Of a stretch of 64,000 bases of DNA, positions 49,492-54,502 are shown piece after piece; the first letter of the stretch is position 1; each line of letters starts with the position of its first letter. Under the pieces are notes generated by a model that saw only the letters and a list, made by a program, of their open reading frames with translations, was not told where the DNA came from and made no database searches. This stretch comes from Nitrospirota bacterium (lineage in GTDB: Bacteria > Nitrospirota > UBA9217). The position numbers and the translations under genes were made by a program. The stretch spans positions 96,001 through 160,000 of the forward strand of contig CAVUHW010000034.1 in the NCBI GenBank assembly GCA_963741205.1, read 5' to 3'.

Positions 49492-49503
49492 AACAGTGAT
49501 TAC

Positions 49504-49686
49504 AATGCGGAATGCGGAATGAATAAACAGTATGCATAGCGGCTGAGGTTGATAGAATGGTATGGCAGGTGGCAGAGAACAAGAGCGAGGAGATACTGCG
49601 AAATAGAGAACGGGTCCGGAATCAGAAGACCGAGCGAATTCCGAAGGTCTTTCACTCCGCATATCCGCAATCCGCAATCCGCAATC
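49504..49686. repeat. Heptamer inverted element (AATGCGG)n ... (ATCCGCA)n
   Basis: aatgcggaatgcggaatg ... ctccgcatatccgcaatccgcaatccgcaatc. Confidence 0.8.
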
Positions 49687-50066
49687 GAAAGGCTTTACCC
49701 TCATCGAACTCATGATCGTGATCTCGATCATGGGAATCCTCATCGCGATCGCCGCGCCGAACCTCAAAGTGTCCATTATCAGGGCGCGCGAGGCCGTGCT
49801 CAGGGAAGACCTGTTCCAGATGCGCGAAGCCATCGACCAGTACTATGCTGACAACGGCAAATTCCCCCCGACGCTCAAGGACCTGATCAATGCCCAGGAT
49901 CGGACGAGAAGCTACCTGCGCGACATCCCCAAAGACCCCTTTACGGGCGCAGACGACTGGATCACAGTGGCGCCGGAAGGAACGGACGCGGAAGGCGGCG
50001 TCTTCGACGTGCACAGCGCGAGCCCGCTTCTTGGCCGTGGACGGCACTGCGTACAATACCTGGTGA
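49549..50066 (+). CDS. Second GspG-like pseudopilin (start uncertain, frameshifted)
   Basis: KG|FTLIELMIVISIMGIL; REAVL.EDL..MR.AIDQY..D.G.FP; YLR.IP.DPFT; DGT.Y..W. Confidence 0.85.
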
Positions 50067-51045
50067 TTGTTCCCCACGCCCTACTTCGTCGCAAAAAACG
50101 AACGTTTCCCGGGGATGACCATCAGCTCCGGTTTGTGAAGTATATTATTTATCATGGTAACCCGGCCACCCGGTTTTTTCTCCCCTGTTGCGTAAACTGA
50201 CCAAAATTATAGATATCCTTCAGTGGCATAGTAATTGAAATGTGCTTTGCTTATAAAAAGAAGGCAGGACGGCAGTCTGTCTGGATTACTAGCGAGCTAT
50301 TCAGGTTCGTTCCTACTGGAGGCTCAAAACAGCGGCAAGACAAAACTATATATGAGCACCGGCTGATGCTTGGCACAAAGTCGGTCGATCTGGGCGAACT
50401 TAAGTTCAAAGCTCATGATGAGTACGAGGTTCCGGCGGCTATCACCATTTCCCGGGAGTCCGAGAAATGGTATGTCTCCTTCTCCTATGAGAAGCAAGGC
50501 GCGGTTTTAAGCGAGCAGGAACTTCTCGAGCTTTACGGCGGCATGTCAACAGAGAGTCTTAATACCGTTACCTTGGGAATGGACCGAGGGGTTGATAATC
50601 CCGCTGGCAACGAGCGACGGATTTATGTATGACTTCTCCGGCATACAAAAGGAGCGTCTGGCAAAAAAGGATGCCGGAAGAAGAGATATCAGAGCAAATG
50701 GCAAGCGGATCAGTGACCGCCCGCATAAGCAAGCTGCAGCGAAATCAGCCGGTGCCAGGCTTATGCTGCCAATGTGAGGCATGATTTCGCGCATAAGGCC
50801 AGCCGCAGCTCGCGGATTCACCCGCGGAGGTGTTCGTCTTCGAGGACCGCAAGGTCAAGAACATGACCAGAGTGCCAAAACCTAGGAAGTCAGCCGGCGG
50901 GACATCCTATAATGCCCCTGTCAAGTACAAGTTCAGCACACTGATCTTTCAACACGATGGCAAACGGCACTTAAGCAGGGCGTAGTTCGCCATATAACCC
51001 GCGATGGGCATTCGTGCTTTTCTTCGACGATTCTCTCACTGAAGC

Positions 51046-51240
51046 GAACTTGCTCTCTCAGCGTTATATTATCCGGCGTGCCGTTGCCGCCAAGCATCCC
51101 TTATCCAGATTCCAAGTTCTATGAGAGGCCCTGCATTGTCCCGCACGAGGTCATTTGCCTCAACGTATTGTCTCGGGCTCTCTACGTCGAAATATAATTT
51201 TCAGGGCTTCTTGCTCGGAAAACGCACGAGCAGGAAGCCC
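51046..51240 (-). ncRNA. Predicted bridge RNA (5' hairpin, target-binding loop, donor-binding loop)
   Basis: Hairpin 51204-51240; loop 51123-51183 carries ACGTAT and GTCCCGC matching the target flanks; loop 51046-51119 carries CATCC and GTTATAT matching the element ends. Confidence 0.82.
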
Positions 51241-51264
51241 GTATTTGAGTCCTCTCGATCTAGC

Positions 51265-52555
51265 CTATGCCTTGCTATCCCCCTGGTTGAGGTATTTGGG
51301 GTCGTACGGCTCCTTCTTTTTCATCAGGGTCCAGGCAATGATCAGAAGCTTCGCTGCAAGTTTCACCCGCATCTTGGTGCCGATCCCTTTCTCCCGCTCC
51401 CGTCCCCGGATCTTGTTCGTGTGGTAAATGATAAACTCTTTGTTGTTGAGCGAGCAGATGATCGCCGCCGGATATAGTGCATAGCGAAGATCGCCTTTCC
51501 CATGTTTGGAGATCACGGCGTGGCGCTCTGTGACGTCTTCCCGCTTCGGCTCGCGCATAGGTCGAAGCCGGCCATCTTCAAGACCTGTTTGCCGGCCGTA
51601 AAGCGCTTGGGGTCTCCAATGGCGGCGAGGACCTTGGCTGACACATCCGGACCAAACCCCGGGATCGTGAGAAGGAACGAGTACTCCGGAAACTTCAGGC
51701 AGATGTCCACGATCTTGTCTTCAAGGTTCTTCATCGTCTCTCGGACGCGATGGAGAGCCGCCACCATGATCTGTGCCTCCACGGACACTGCTTCTCCGAC
51801 GATACAGCCTATGGACTGCTTGGCAGCCCGCCATATCTGCGTAAGCCGACCTGCTGAGGCAAACTCACCTTGCCGGGCGAGACGGTCCGGCAGAATTCAT
51901 CGTACTCCATGACCGAGATCAGCGAAGGGTCCAGACAGCGGCTTACCACGTTCAGACTCGCCACTGACCCGAAGTGCTGGTCCATCTCCGGGAAGTACTG
52001 GGCCAAAAGCTGATTGCGGATGCGGACCCGAAGGCCGTGCTCCTCCTTCTTGAGCCGTTTCTTTAAGGACAACAGGCCCCGCAGGGACCGAAGATCCTCT
52101 CCCGGGCAGTCGTAGTACAGGCATTTCCCTTGGGCTATCAGGTCGGCGACATTGGCGGAATCCTTCGTGTCGTGCTTATCCCACCGGCCGTCCAGAAGCT
52201 CCCGGTTCTTTGACGTGGCCGCCGCAGATACCAGAACCACCAAGTGCCCCCCCTTGATAAGATACTCTCCCAAGGGCTTGTGGTAGTTGGCCGTGGGCTC
52301 CAAGCCGAAGACCACCTTCCGGTGGCCGTGCTGCACCTTGAGGGCGTCCGTCTGGATCAAAAGCTTCTGAAAGCCCTCATAGGTATTGTCAAAGAACATT
52401 CCTTTGTGCAGCGTCTTGCCGGCGGCCGTGCCGAAGAAAGCGTTGTGCCGTTCCTTGGCGATGTCCAGGCCGATAATCAAATACTCCGTTGAACCTCGAA
52501 TCTCCTTTTGGAATCGACAAAACTGCTCGCGTCTGCTATCATTGAAATCATTCAC
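51265..52555 (-). CDS. IS110 DEDD recombinase (about 430 aa, two or more indels)
   Basis: GLDIAK..H, LEPTANY, KHD.KDS..VA; Tnp20 domain LLTIPGFG, AG......SG, ISK.G...LRYALY, A.KL; GTG start after AGGAGG. Confidence 0.93.
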
Positions 52556-52616
52556 AGAAACCTCCTGCCTCAAGAATTTAGTTCCCGCATGAACTTATTC
52601 TTAGCAGGAGGTTTCT
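52556..52616 (-). promoter_or_regulatory. Hairpin sequestering the recombinase RBS
   Basis: 13-bp perfect IR agaaacctcctgc/gcaggaggtttct plus inner aagaat/attctt and agttc/gaact. Confidence 0.7.
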
Positions 52617-52873
52617 ATTTTGGATAGATTGAAAAAGAACTTCCTCTATGATTTACTGGGGAAGATCAACCTCATGCTCTATCCATATATAACGTATATC
52701 CCGAACGGATCAAAGGCCAAGGCCGGTCTCAACAAGTCCATAATTGAAGTGATGCGGAATATCGCGTGGCGACGGATGCTATTAAACCTCTTCCTATCGA
52801 GAGTGTCTCATTCCATTGACGGACTCCGCATATCGGAGAGGGGCGGAGATTATCCATTTCGGGAGGGAATCAT

Positions 52874-54502
52874 ATGATGTTCAGAAGGCATCTTGCCTGG
52901 GTTTTGGTTTTACTGGCTGTAGCAGCGTTGCAGGCGTGCGGAAATAACTCGAGTTCATCGGAAAGCGGGACAACTTCTCAGACAGGCGTCGTAGCAATAA
53001 AACTTACGGACGCGCCGGGAGATTTCGATCATGTGTATATTACGGTGAAGGACATCTGGTTCCATACGAGCGACGCGGCCGATCCGCGTACGGGAGCCTG
53101 GCTCAAGTATCCGCTCACGCAACCCGTCATCGTTGATCTCCTGGCTCTCTCGAGCGGGAACATGCAGTCCCTCTGGAACAACATCCAGCTCCCGGCAGGC
53201 ACGTACCGGCAGATCAGACTGTTTTTGGAACCTACCAATCCGACCGCCGTCAACCCCGCCCCGACAGGCCACACGTATTTCAACGAGGTTGTCATCGGTT
53301 CAACGACCTCTCCCCTGTATATACCGGACGCCGACCACGGCATCATGCTGACCGGCGCGTTCGGCGTGACGGCCGGAGGCACGCTCAATCTTGCCATTGA
53401 CCTCGACGCCGGCCACGACATCGTGGAATTCCACGAAGGAACGGACTTCGTCTTAAAACCGAGGCTCAACTACTTCGACCTTGACCATGTGGGCGCCATT
53501 ATCGGCAAGCTCTCCACCGGCGGATCACTAACGGCCCCCCGTTTCGTGATCAAGGCCGAGCGTCTCTCCACGGAGAAGGAAATGGAAGACGCCGGCGCGG
53601 TGAGCCCTTTCCATGTGGTGAGACGCTGGACTGTTCCCAGGGCCGACGGTACGTTTATTCTCTATCCCGTATCGACGCTGGTCACCAGCACGTGGGATGT
53701 CGTGATCCGGGGCTTGAACACGGAGACCATGATCATTAAAGGGGTGCCGGTCACAAAAGGCACGACCACGGCGAACGGCACGGACCTCGCCGTCATCAGC
53801 ACGACTCCGACGAGTACCAATGACTACGCGGTCGACGGAACGATCCAGTCGCCCACGGGCGCATGGGTGCAGTTCTACCAAACCCTTCCGGGGGCCGGGG
53901 AGTACCCCTATGAGATCCGGTTCCGCCATTTCAATCCGCTCACGGGAGGTTTCAGGAACTTCCCATTGAACAACGATCAGATCCAGGTGGCGAATTTCGT
54001 GAGCAGCGGGGCAACACTTACGTTCACGCCGGAGACCCCTGCCGGCGGCGCCGGCAATTATGGCGCCGTGGCCGACGCAATTCTGTTCAAACACAGCGAC
54101 CCCATACCGGTCACTTCATCGACGACGACCGTCGCGTTCACAACGCCGCTTCAGGTGGTGTCTCCCTATAAGGGAAACAGCGTGACCGGCACGATCACCA
54201 TGAACAATCCGTTAAGGATGAACAATAAGATGGACAGGGGCCGGCTCTTCGCGGTGCACGGCGGAATGATCGTCAATGCCGTCGATGTCAGCAGTCAGAT
54301 GACGGGGACGACCACCAATGCATACAGCATCGATCTGCCCGGCGGCGATGCGGCAACACCGCTTCCCGGCGCCTTCTACGGGATCGATGCGGTCGGTTGG
54401 TCCTCGACGAGCCCCCTGTTCAAGGCGATAGCGATTCCTCAGATCGTGGATGTCCGCACAGGGAACGATATTGCCACGGTGGATATGCTGCCGCTCTGGT
54501 AG
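52874..54502 (+). CDS. DUF4382-type lipoprotein
   Basis: Lipobox LQAC; IKLTDAP.DFDHVYITV; VDLL.L; LPAGTY.QIRL; L.ID.DA..; LKPRL. Confidence 0.8.
   Translation: MMFRRHLAWVLVLLAVAALQACGNNSSSSESGTTSQTGVVAIKLTDAPGDFDHVYITVKDIWFHTSDAADPRTGAWLKYPLTQPVIVDLLALSSGNMQSLWNNIQLPAGTYRQIRLFLEPTNPTAVNPAPTGHTYFNEVVIGSTTSPLYIPDADHGIMLTGAFGVTAGGTLNLAIDLDAGHDIVEFHEGTDFVLKPRLNYFDLDHVGAIIGKLSTGGSLTAPRFVIKAERLSTEKEMEDAGAVSPFHVVRRWTVPRADGTFILYPVSTLVTSTWDVVIRGLNTETMIIKGVPVTKGTTTANGTDLAVISTTPTSTNDYAVDGTIQSPTGAWVQFYQTLPGAGEYPYEIRFRHFNPLTGGFRNFPLNNDQIQVANFVSSGATLTFTPETPAGGAGNYGAVADAILFKHSDPIPVTSSTTTVAFTTPLQVVSPYKGNSVTGTITMNNPLRMNNKMDRGRLFAVHGGMIVNAVDVSSQMTGTTTNAYSIDLPGGDAATPLPGAFYGIDAVGWSSTSPLFKAIAIPQIVDVRTGNDIATVDMLPLW

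Follow-up and report, generated by a model that had tools for sequence, protein, structure and literature searches.

One copy of a multi-copy tnpB gene in a Nitrospirota bacterium (GTDB lineage Bacteria; Nitrospirota; UBA9217; assembly GCA_963741205.1) is interrupted by a 1788-bp insertion, and the locus raises the question of what kind of element landed there and how its insertion site was chosen. The interrupted gene lies on contig CAVUHW010000034.1, in the 64,000-nucleotide stretch between positions 96,001 and 160,000, which was analysed as a whole and is referred to here as the window; coordinates are window positions unless a locus is named. The segment 50904-52691 is very probably an insertion sequence (IS) of the IS110 family, encoding a bridge recombinase of approximately 430 amino acids (aa) and, downstream of the gene, a bridge RNA of approximately 170 nt. 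Such an element had been proposed in a first-pass annotation made from the sequence, and all the strings and positions which that annotation gave were present in the DNA.

The ends of the element were determined by comparison with uninterrupted copies of the host gene. In the same genome, 17 paralogous tnpB copies were uninterrupted at the site, reading ...ATATAC-GT-CCCGCC..., and the exact 11-mer ATACGTCCCGC was found in 14 of these 17 empty sites. The BLAST matches of the left and right flanks in the empty copies overlapped by exactly 2 nt. These two nucleotides, GT, occurred once in the empty sites and on both sides of the element, with no longer target duplication; the element ends and the core dinucleotide were therefore fixed independently of any RNA model. 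On the minus strand, the element starts with TATATATGG... and ends with ...CATTATAGGAT, the left flank being ...GGGATATAC-GT and the right flank GT-CCCGCCGG...; on the plus strand, the junctions read GCGGGAC (50897-50903) and ACGTAT (52692-52697). Relatives that were 81-85% identical in DNA had the same ends. The GT core and the target ATAC-GT-CCCGC assigned in the first-pass annotation agreed with the 17 empty sites, and in silico removal of the element left one open frame across the joint, as expected if excision restores the tnpB frame. The coordinates of the features are collected in Table 1.

Table 1. Features of the IS110-family element and of its insertion site, in window positions.
Feature	Position	Strand	Basis or remark
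IS110-family IS element, 1788 bp	50904..52691	minus	empty paralogous sites; ends shared by relatives
Core dinucleotide GT (AC on plus strand), left junction	52692..52693	minus	once in empty sites, on both sides here
Core dinucleotide GT (AC on plus strand), right junction	50902..50903	minus	once in empty sites, on both sides here
Left target ATAC (GTAT on plus strand)	52694..52697	minus	matches loop positions 51168-51165
Right target CCCGC (GCGGG on plus strand)	50897..50901	minus	complementary to loop positions 51144-51140
Recombinase gene, DEDD RuvC-like domain and Tnp domain with Ser-Gly	51265..52555	minus	open reading frame pieces, Pfam
Conserved bridge RNA region, approximately 170-nt RNA	51009..51198	minus	covariance model R1 match, 186.8 bits
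Outer stem P1, 51190-51185 with 51029-51024, closing both arms	51024..51190	minus	six pairs
Target-binding arm; stem 51182-51175 with 51131-51123, inner hairpin	51123..51182	minus	pair covariation
Target arm guides: AUACGU (left and core); GCGGGAC (right); handshake A	51168-51163; 51144-51138; 51137	minus	
Donor-binding arm; stem gaacttg 51119-51113 with caagttc 51052-51046, inner hairpin	51046..51119	minus	three stem pairs compensatory
Donor arm guides: GGAUG (left); AUAUAAC (right); handshake G	51099-51095; 51069-51063; 51062	minus	
Hairpin 3' of the stop codon	51204..51240	minus	minimum free energy and centroid folds; outside model R1
Left-end hairpin, CCUCCUG with CAGGAGG (ribosome-binding site), just 5' of the start codon	52554..52618	minus	ViennaRNA fold
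TTGACA, -35 half of predicted junction promoter	50919..50924	minus	formed only with the ends joined in a circle
TATATA, -10 half of predicted junction promoter	52686..52691	minus	preceded by TGT in the circle (extended -10)
Host tnpB fragment, left part	50248..50903	plus	copy of a repeat found in approximately 18 other places at 90-93% identity (flank BLAST, genome)
Host tnpB fragment, right part	52694..52748	plus	similarity to paralogues stops at 52748

The protein encoded by the element belongs to the family of bridge recombinases. The assembly lacks single bases near 51851 and 51517, so that the gene reads in three frames; its GTG start at 52555 was inferred by alignment with the ATG of the homologous locus L005, and its stop codon is at 51265. 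PF01548 was detected in the first open reading frame (ORF) piece (E = 1.5e-19) and PF02371 in the second (E = 2.3e-11), with no family in the third, and both families were present in the intact 430-aa gene of L005, which scored 153.4 bits against the NCBIfam model NF033542 'IS110 family RNA-guided transposase' (cut-off 140). The only sequence matches in PDB were IS621 (E = 1.7e-13) and ISCro4 (2.4e-11). In Foldseek searches with a predicted structure, ranks 1-10 were all IS621 or ISCro4 chains (E 6e-12 to 8e-11, TM on target 0.53-0.57). In an HMMER alignment, D31, E86, D129, D132 and S338(-G339) corresponded to IS621 D11, E60, D102, D105 and S241, named as catalytic in PMC11208158; the five residues were invariant in six of six aligned homologues and were all present in the ORF pieces of the window. 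The predicted layout is a RuvC-like DEDD domain, a coiled coil and a Tnp domain with the catalytic serine. Approximately 5,000 homologues were found, and the best 120 of them had 378-442 aa, mostly 430, in keeping with the length initially assigned to the recombinase, and the nearest plasmid-borne relatives were 27-29% identical 'IS110 family transposases' without IS names. The Foldseek ranks 12-30, following the bridge recombinases, were occupied by the box C/D proteins Nop5, Nop56 and Nop58; a link between IS110 transposases and Nop5 has been proposed (bioRxiv 10.1101/2024.06.21.599552), and these later structural matches agree with it.

The region 3' of the stop codon was aligned between the window and 17 relatives whose proteins were 54-92% identical to that of L005. 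RNAalifold and a count of pairs in these 18 sequences supported six helices with 34 pairs, namely the outer stem, the stem and inner hairpin of the first arm, and two stems and the inner hairpin of the second, so that a non-coding RNA with two internal loops emerged. In this structure, 97.7% of the cells were paired, as against 33-49% when the partners were slid by 1-3 columns. Eight pairs changed on both sides, compensatory base changes were present in four helices, and none of 500 shuffles reached the covariation score; in the outer stem, one pair changed from A-U to G-C in 7 of the 18 sequences. With the covariance model R1, the RNA was recovered from 95 of 100 sources, these 95 matches being drawn from Nitrospirota genomes and metagenomes, and the five misses were contigs ending at most 10 nt from the gene (L104, L121, L122, L015, L024, L026, L031, L033, L035, L036 and L040 were not in the R1 set). 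Its only full match in the window, as in the whole genome, was 51198-51009. An RNA downstream of the gene, as originally read from the letters, was thus borne out by a conserved structure with covariation support. The original division of this region into three domains held for the target and donor arms; the first hairpin, predicted in both the minimum free energy and the centroid folds of 50904-51264, was missing in L005, L006 and L009 and appeared dispensable, and the outer stem had been overlooked. The minus strand showed no separate promoter for the RNA, which would be made by co-transcription with the gene followed by processing.

The two loops of this RNA carry short strings that correspond to the insertion site and to the ends of the element. 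The left target guide, AUAC with GU, has the same sequence as the target and would pair with the bottom strand, and the right target guide, GCGGGAC, would pair with the top strand GT-CCCGC. All four guide strings together, with neither their order nor their position in loops required, occurred in 2 of 200,000 mononucleotide shuffles of the 361-nt right end. The correspondence between guides and flanks was then evaluated across relatives, the guide columns being taken from the model alignment and the element ends from conserved end motifs, without use of the guides. Among the 93 non-redundant rows, the right flank was available in 76 and the left flank in 66. End calling by pattern took three rounds; the left-flank row of L068 is wrong and that of L100 may be, and both were counted as misses. 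Within the six positions beyond the core, right guides matched their own flanks at 4.11 positions on average, compared to 2.77 when permuted (maximum 3.18), and left guides at 4.50, compared to 2.88 (maximum 3.41); in 20,000 permutations, the observed match was never reached for right or for left guides. With one row per distinct guide, the values were 4.19 versus 2.01 for the 26 right guides and 4.27 versus 2.43 for the 41 left guides, again with 0 of 20,000 permutations each. The covariation between loop guides and flanking targets that was set as a check in the first-pass annotation was therefore present on both sides of the element.

The match rates at individual positions were 0.97, 0.93, 0.91, 0.54, 0.42 and 0.33 for right target positions +1 to +6, and 0.52, 0.42, 0.68, 0.52, 0.86, 0.76, 0.83 and 0.85 for left target positions -8 to -1. 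The strongly read target is therefore approximately 4 + 2 + 3 bp. The right guide did not start with GTCC in 18 elements, and 14 of these 18 matched the flank at 6 or more of 8 positions; the re-aimed cases included L062 (CGTTC-GT-GCTTTA), L052 (GGTTTA-GT-TCTTCA), L025 (ATTGC-GT-TTACA) and L063 (GT-GTCCAA). The ATAC left guide was found in the window element alone among the 66, with its own flank matched at four of four positions. The GT core was present in the left guide, the right guide and the donor guide together in 83 of 89 relatives.

The donor loop followed the element's own ends in the same manner, GGAU(G) being the guide for the right end and AUAUAAC that for GT and the left end. The pairs of left donor guide and right end were GGAT with AGGAT (48 elements), GTAT with AGTAT (13), GGATT with AGGATT, a longer end (10), and GCAT with AGCAT (3; the ends of all three GCAT elements were inspected only after the guide had been read). 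The right end varied between G, T and C at its third-from-last base, which tracked the donor guide in 74 of 78 elements, with four exceptions. The left ends were nearly uniform (TATATAT in 52 of 66), so that covariation in the donor loop was read from the left donor guide. The base that follows the right donor guide was identical to target position -1 in 58 of 66 elements and agreed with the left guide's final base in 81 of 89, in line with the handshake pairing claimed from the sequence and with the handshake position defined for IS621 (PMC11208158). Two further bases, the A that follows the right target guide and the T that closes the right end, were invariant, which is consistent with a handshake and uninformative.

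Several observations weigh against a guide RNA of this kind or against a functional element at this locus. As to the RNA, the single-sequence fold of the 361-nt right end, a check proposed in the first-pass annotation, was no better than expected (z = -1.06; 15 of 100 shuffles folded as well or better), and an Rfam scan of both strands of 49500-54000 gave no matches at E <= 1. As to the guides, left target positions -4 to -1 were fully matched in only 38 of 66 elements, and right target positions +4 to +6 matched at rates of only 0.54, 0.42 and 0.33. L108, with the same right guide as the window, sits at a GTCCCT site, so the window's own match at +4 and +5 (GC) may be partly luck. L019, L029 and L037 fitted poorly on the readable sides, and the left guides of L028 and L067 did not fit their flanks. 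The permutation counts overstate independence because related elements share guides and targets by descent. The structure model of the recombinase was mediocre (pLDDT 63.5). Furthermore, the recombinase is frameshifted twice in the assembly, being one base short near 51851 and one near 51517 relative to L002, L005 and L007; the second genomic copy, L002, contains an internal TAG; and the 14 perfect 11-mer targets in other tnpB copies are unoccupied, so that there is no sign of recent spread.

The fold statistic and the absence of an Rfam family are what would be expected if the right end held no guide RNA, being instead a protein-binding DNA site or a plain 3' untranslated region, with the matches arising by chance or carried over from the target. 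We give this explanation almost no credence. Conservation of a DNA site does not predict the compensatory changes seen in four helices, the guides change together with the flanks in many lineages, and the nearest solved protein relatives work with exactly such an RNA. The guides also lie 140-290 nt inside the element and so are not copyable from the flank at insertion. A bridge RNA therefore remains the preferred explanation of the region.

The frameshifts bear on a different alternative, in which the element is of the bridge-RNA kind and the window copy is a dead relic whose frameshifts are real and whose guide match records a past insertion. In its favour, the gene is broken into three frames by two single-nucleotide deletions that three homologues lack, the interrupted tnpB copy is also truncated and is frameshifted upstream, and the genome holds one full copy, one copy cut by a contig end (L002) and one 328-nt remnant (L003). 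The empty state of the 14 perfect targets also fits a relic. On the other side, contigs from public DNA runs carried an extra base at 51850 (X1, X2 and X4), 51515 (X1 and X4) and 51039 (X1), with the extra-base contigs at full depth at each of these positions; the first two are the frameshift sites and the third is a place where the relatives have a base too. All the catalytic residues, moreover, were retained in the ORF pieces. An intact version exists in those samples because the contigs carry the missing bases. The assembly may therefore carry single-base deletion errors, of which the frameshifts would be examples; as the contigs differ from the window at other letters, they may instead represent a close variant. 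The 'indel-corrected recombinase' invoked in the first-pass annotation was correct in that the bases are missing from the assembly, and the correction itself may be unnecessary, both bases being carried by the run contigs. Overall, we consider a dead relic rather unlikely. If the assembly does have single-base deletion errors, 'pseudogenes' elsewhere in this genome need careful reading. A single extra base was also seen in the run contigs at 50673 and 50806.

The second genomic copy, L002, is 85% identical to the window element and is inserted at CAAC-GT with a CAACGU left guide; its contig ends inside the target loop, and the missing tail, for which a right target GT-CTCCAC is predicted, was sought in the whole genome and not found. 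The remnant L003 (G000 C30:13575-13902) is a left end of 328 nt from a related element at 75% identity, with the flank ...CTTCA-GT, and adjoins a diguanylate-cyclase-like gene.

The identity of the host gene was settled through the intact paralogue L010 (631-2109, minus strand; 492 aa with PF07282, PF01385 and PF12323) because the five short pieces of the interrupted tnpB gave no Pfam family at E <= 1. After removal of the element, the frame of the window copy continues across the joint. The exact 11-mer target occurred 16 times in the genome, compared to 2.0 expected, and 14 of these were in the empty tnpB paralogues. Approximately 26 loci in the genome matched one TnpB protein (G000 contigs C4, C15, C17, C18, C20, C26, C28, C30, C34, C43 and C47), approximately 18 of them being 90-93% identical in DNA to the window fragment 50248-50903; some were open over the full 492 aa and others were frameshifted. 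A joint of 50901 to 52692 was found in one X1 contig (depth 34.6) and was rejected as a sign of excision, empty tnpB paralogues being its most likely source.

The placement of the element among the known systems was then considered. The mechanism was established by studies of bridge RNAs (PMC11208160) and seekRNAs (bioRxiv 10.1101/2024.04.26.591405), according to which the RNA lies upstream in most elements of the IS110 group and downstream in IS1111. The window element had the features of the IS110 family in the broad sense: PF01548 and PF02371, the catalytic D, E, D, D and Ser-Gly, the fold of the solved bridge recombinases, the core dinucleotide at both junctions, and loop guides complementary to and covarying with target and donor. 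Its downstream RNA, the long right end of 361 nt and the short left end of approximately 137 nt reproduce the layout described in these two sources for IS1111, and could indicate an IS1111 member with a right-end seekRNA, such as ISEc11, ISPa11 or IS4321. We regard this assignment as improbable. IS1111 subterminal inverted repeats measure 7-17 bp (PMC11208160), and no inverted repeat of at least 8 nt was common to both ends when the outermost 80 nt on each side were compared in the window element and in four relatives, in accordance with the first impression that there were no clear subterminal inverted repeats; the best inverted 7-mers differed in sequence and position between the window and the relatives, and only a short TATA...TATA symmetry surrounded the joined ends. 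The recombinase of 430 aa exceeds the 330-350 aa given for IS1111 transposases (bioRxiv 10.1101/2024.04.26.591405). The guide order, with the left guide (bottom strand) 5' of the right guide (top strand), is that of ISEc21, an IS110 member, and is the reverse of the order in all the IS1111 members tested in the same preprint, where the top-strand match lies 5' of the bottom-strand match. The 'IS110/IS1111 architecture' assigned in the first-pass annotation was thus right as to IS110-type features, and IS1111 traits were absent apart from the downstream position of the RNA. For the IS110 group in the narrow sense, an upstream RNA in the left end was absent, whereas the lack of subterminal repeats and the transposase length (315-455 aa) conformed. 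The seekRNA preprint also notes some IS110-family members with a downstream non-coding region, their RNA being undescribed in its sections 5, 8, 11 and 12, so a downstream RNA in the IS110 family is already recorded in general terms.

With this IS110-type placement, the closest comparison is with IS621 and ISCro4 (PDB 8wt6, 9t56; PMC11208160, PMC11208158). The window element shares with them a DEDD and Ser recombinase, a target loop 5' of the donor loop, a left guide on the 5' side and a right guide on the 3' side of each loop, a 2-nt core common to target and donor, a single handshake base following each right guide, the lack of long subterminal repeats and a circle-junction promoter, which here is predicted from the sequence only. 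It differs in that its RNA is 3' of the gene in the right end, whereas theirs is upstream in the left end. Compared to IS621, its enzyme is longer (430 versus 326 aa, approximately 18-20% identical), its core is GT rather than CT, its RNA has an outer stem closing both arms in place of the 5' stem-loop and linker of the IS621 RNA (PMC11208158), and the guides of its clade are shorter in effect, with approximately 4 + 2 + 3 bp strongly matched. ISEc21 (bioRxiv 10.1101/2024.04.26.591405) is similar in having the bottom-strand match first and then the top-strand match, in a target lying in the codons of another transposon (an IS3-family transposase for ISEc21, tnpB in the window) and in natural re-aiming, described there for ISMch6 and seen here in many lineages; its non-coding region is upstream and its transposase has 358 aa. 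Elements of the IS1111 group (ISEc11, ISPa11, ISKpn4, IS4321/IS5075) are similar in their downstream RNA, long right end and insertion into repeated or mobile DNA; the long subterminal inverted repeats, the 330-350-aa transposases and the reversed guide order of that group were not found here. ISPpu9 of Pseudomonas putida, an IS110-group element (PMC12288879), carries a gene for a small RNA downstream of its transposase gene, limits translation through a structured 5' untranslated region and has a core dinucleotide at both ends. Its Ssr9 RNA is described as dispensable for transposition and is not a bridge RNA, whereas the downstream RNA of the window element carries guides; ISPpu9 circles are reported to make no hybrid promoter.

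By analogy with the mechanism of the family, the element would be excised in circular form, with GT joining the right end to the left end and the promoter TTGACA-N17-TATATA created at this junction. The two loops in the recombinase-RNA complex would then pair, one with the junction of the circle and one with the target, and strands would be exchanged at the GT core; A 51137 and G 51062 would pair only after exchange, as handshake bases. The window copy would have landed in this way in a conserved stretch of the multi-copy tnpB gene. The predicted circle junction would read ...TATAGGAT-GT-TATATAT..., with a spacer of 17 nt between the two hexamers (15 nt of the right end and the GT core). Among relatives, the spacer was 17 nt in 68 of 78, 18 nt in 8 and 16 nt in 2; a -35-like hexamer was present in 78 of 78 called ends, which is circular because the end pattern required the hexamer, and only the spacing is informative. 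The right-end pattern gave no call in 4 of 82 loci with enough sequence. Junction promoters have been described for the family (PMC11208160; bioRxiv 10.1101/2024.04.26.591405), and the junction of the window element is likewise predicted to act as one. The CCTCCTG/CAGGAGG pair of the left-end hairpin was also present in the left ends of relatives, and the hairpin probably acts as a brake on translation.

Relatives were collected from a genome collection scan (5 loci), from 401 genomes of the phylum, of which 26 had a match at E <= 1e-40 (21 of 63 in the window's own family), and from a metagenome scan that gave 522 relatives, the best 80 of which were taken further. In one subclade (L018, L019, L029, L037, L054, L057 and L060), the left guide seems to be shifted in register by one base, and the core is GA in some cases; the members were not re-registered and enter the counts as poor matches. 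In several relatives (L046, L047, L098 and L021), the right-target segment was directly repeated downstream, e.g., GTCCCCTAAATA twice, and in L116 a second left end starts approximately 30 nt after the first element. The arrangements at L046, L047, L098, L021, L116 and L093 look like tandem or nested insertions or footprints. The left flanks of L076, L088, L090, L093 and L113, and also of L016, L047 and L091, were alike in different samples. One shared left flank runs far beyond the guide (...TTTTGGAACCAAC-GT) with differing right flanks, and another set of elements shares ...TTCGGACAC[ACT]AC-GT-CCCCAA[AT]G. These common targets may be the ends of other repeated or mobile DNA. A small ORF beside the right end of L016 (2882-3466, minus strand) matched HTH_Tnp_1 weakly (19.2 bits, below the cut-off of 24.1), which hints that the L016 element lies inside an IS3-like element.

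RNA-guided IS110 recombination has been in print since 2024, so the finding opens no new category, and the element belongs to a known kind, to which it adds a new member or at most a subgroup that has been little described. A literature search found no paper on such elements in Nitrospirota, although Supplementary Table 5 of PMC11208160 and the extended data of the seekRNA preprint may already include the clade; nor was any found on IS110 insertion into tnpB, as judged from titles and the openings of abstracts, with supplements not covered. Tentatively, and as a possibility short of a probability, the relatives may form an undescribed clade of IS110-type bridge recombinases whose members are long (approximately 430 aa) and common in Nitrospirota as well as in metagenomes from sediment and soil. 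It would be distinguished by an RNA moved to the 3' side with the IS110 guide order kept, an outer stem that makes a three-way junction, a GT core with a target of approximately 4 + 2 + 3 bp, and repeated natural re-aiming (at least 26 right and at least 41 left guides). Such a clade would often aim at other mobile elements, and in the window an RNA-guided element would be homing into tnpB, the gene of a second such element.

The relatives provide a natural reprogramming series of approximately 90 elements in which loops and insertion sites can be read side by side, and which shows the positions that matter in this clade: the core, approximately four bases to its left and three to its right, a single handshake base and a donor base that varies. 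L005 and other intact orthologues could be tested as compact GT-core recombinases. The insertion into tnpB is a further case of one transposon using another as its landing site. For the family as a whole, the position of the RNA (5' or 3' of the gene) and the order of the guides are separable traits, which bears on the divergence of IS110 and IS1111.

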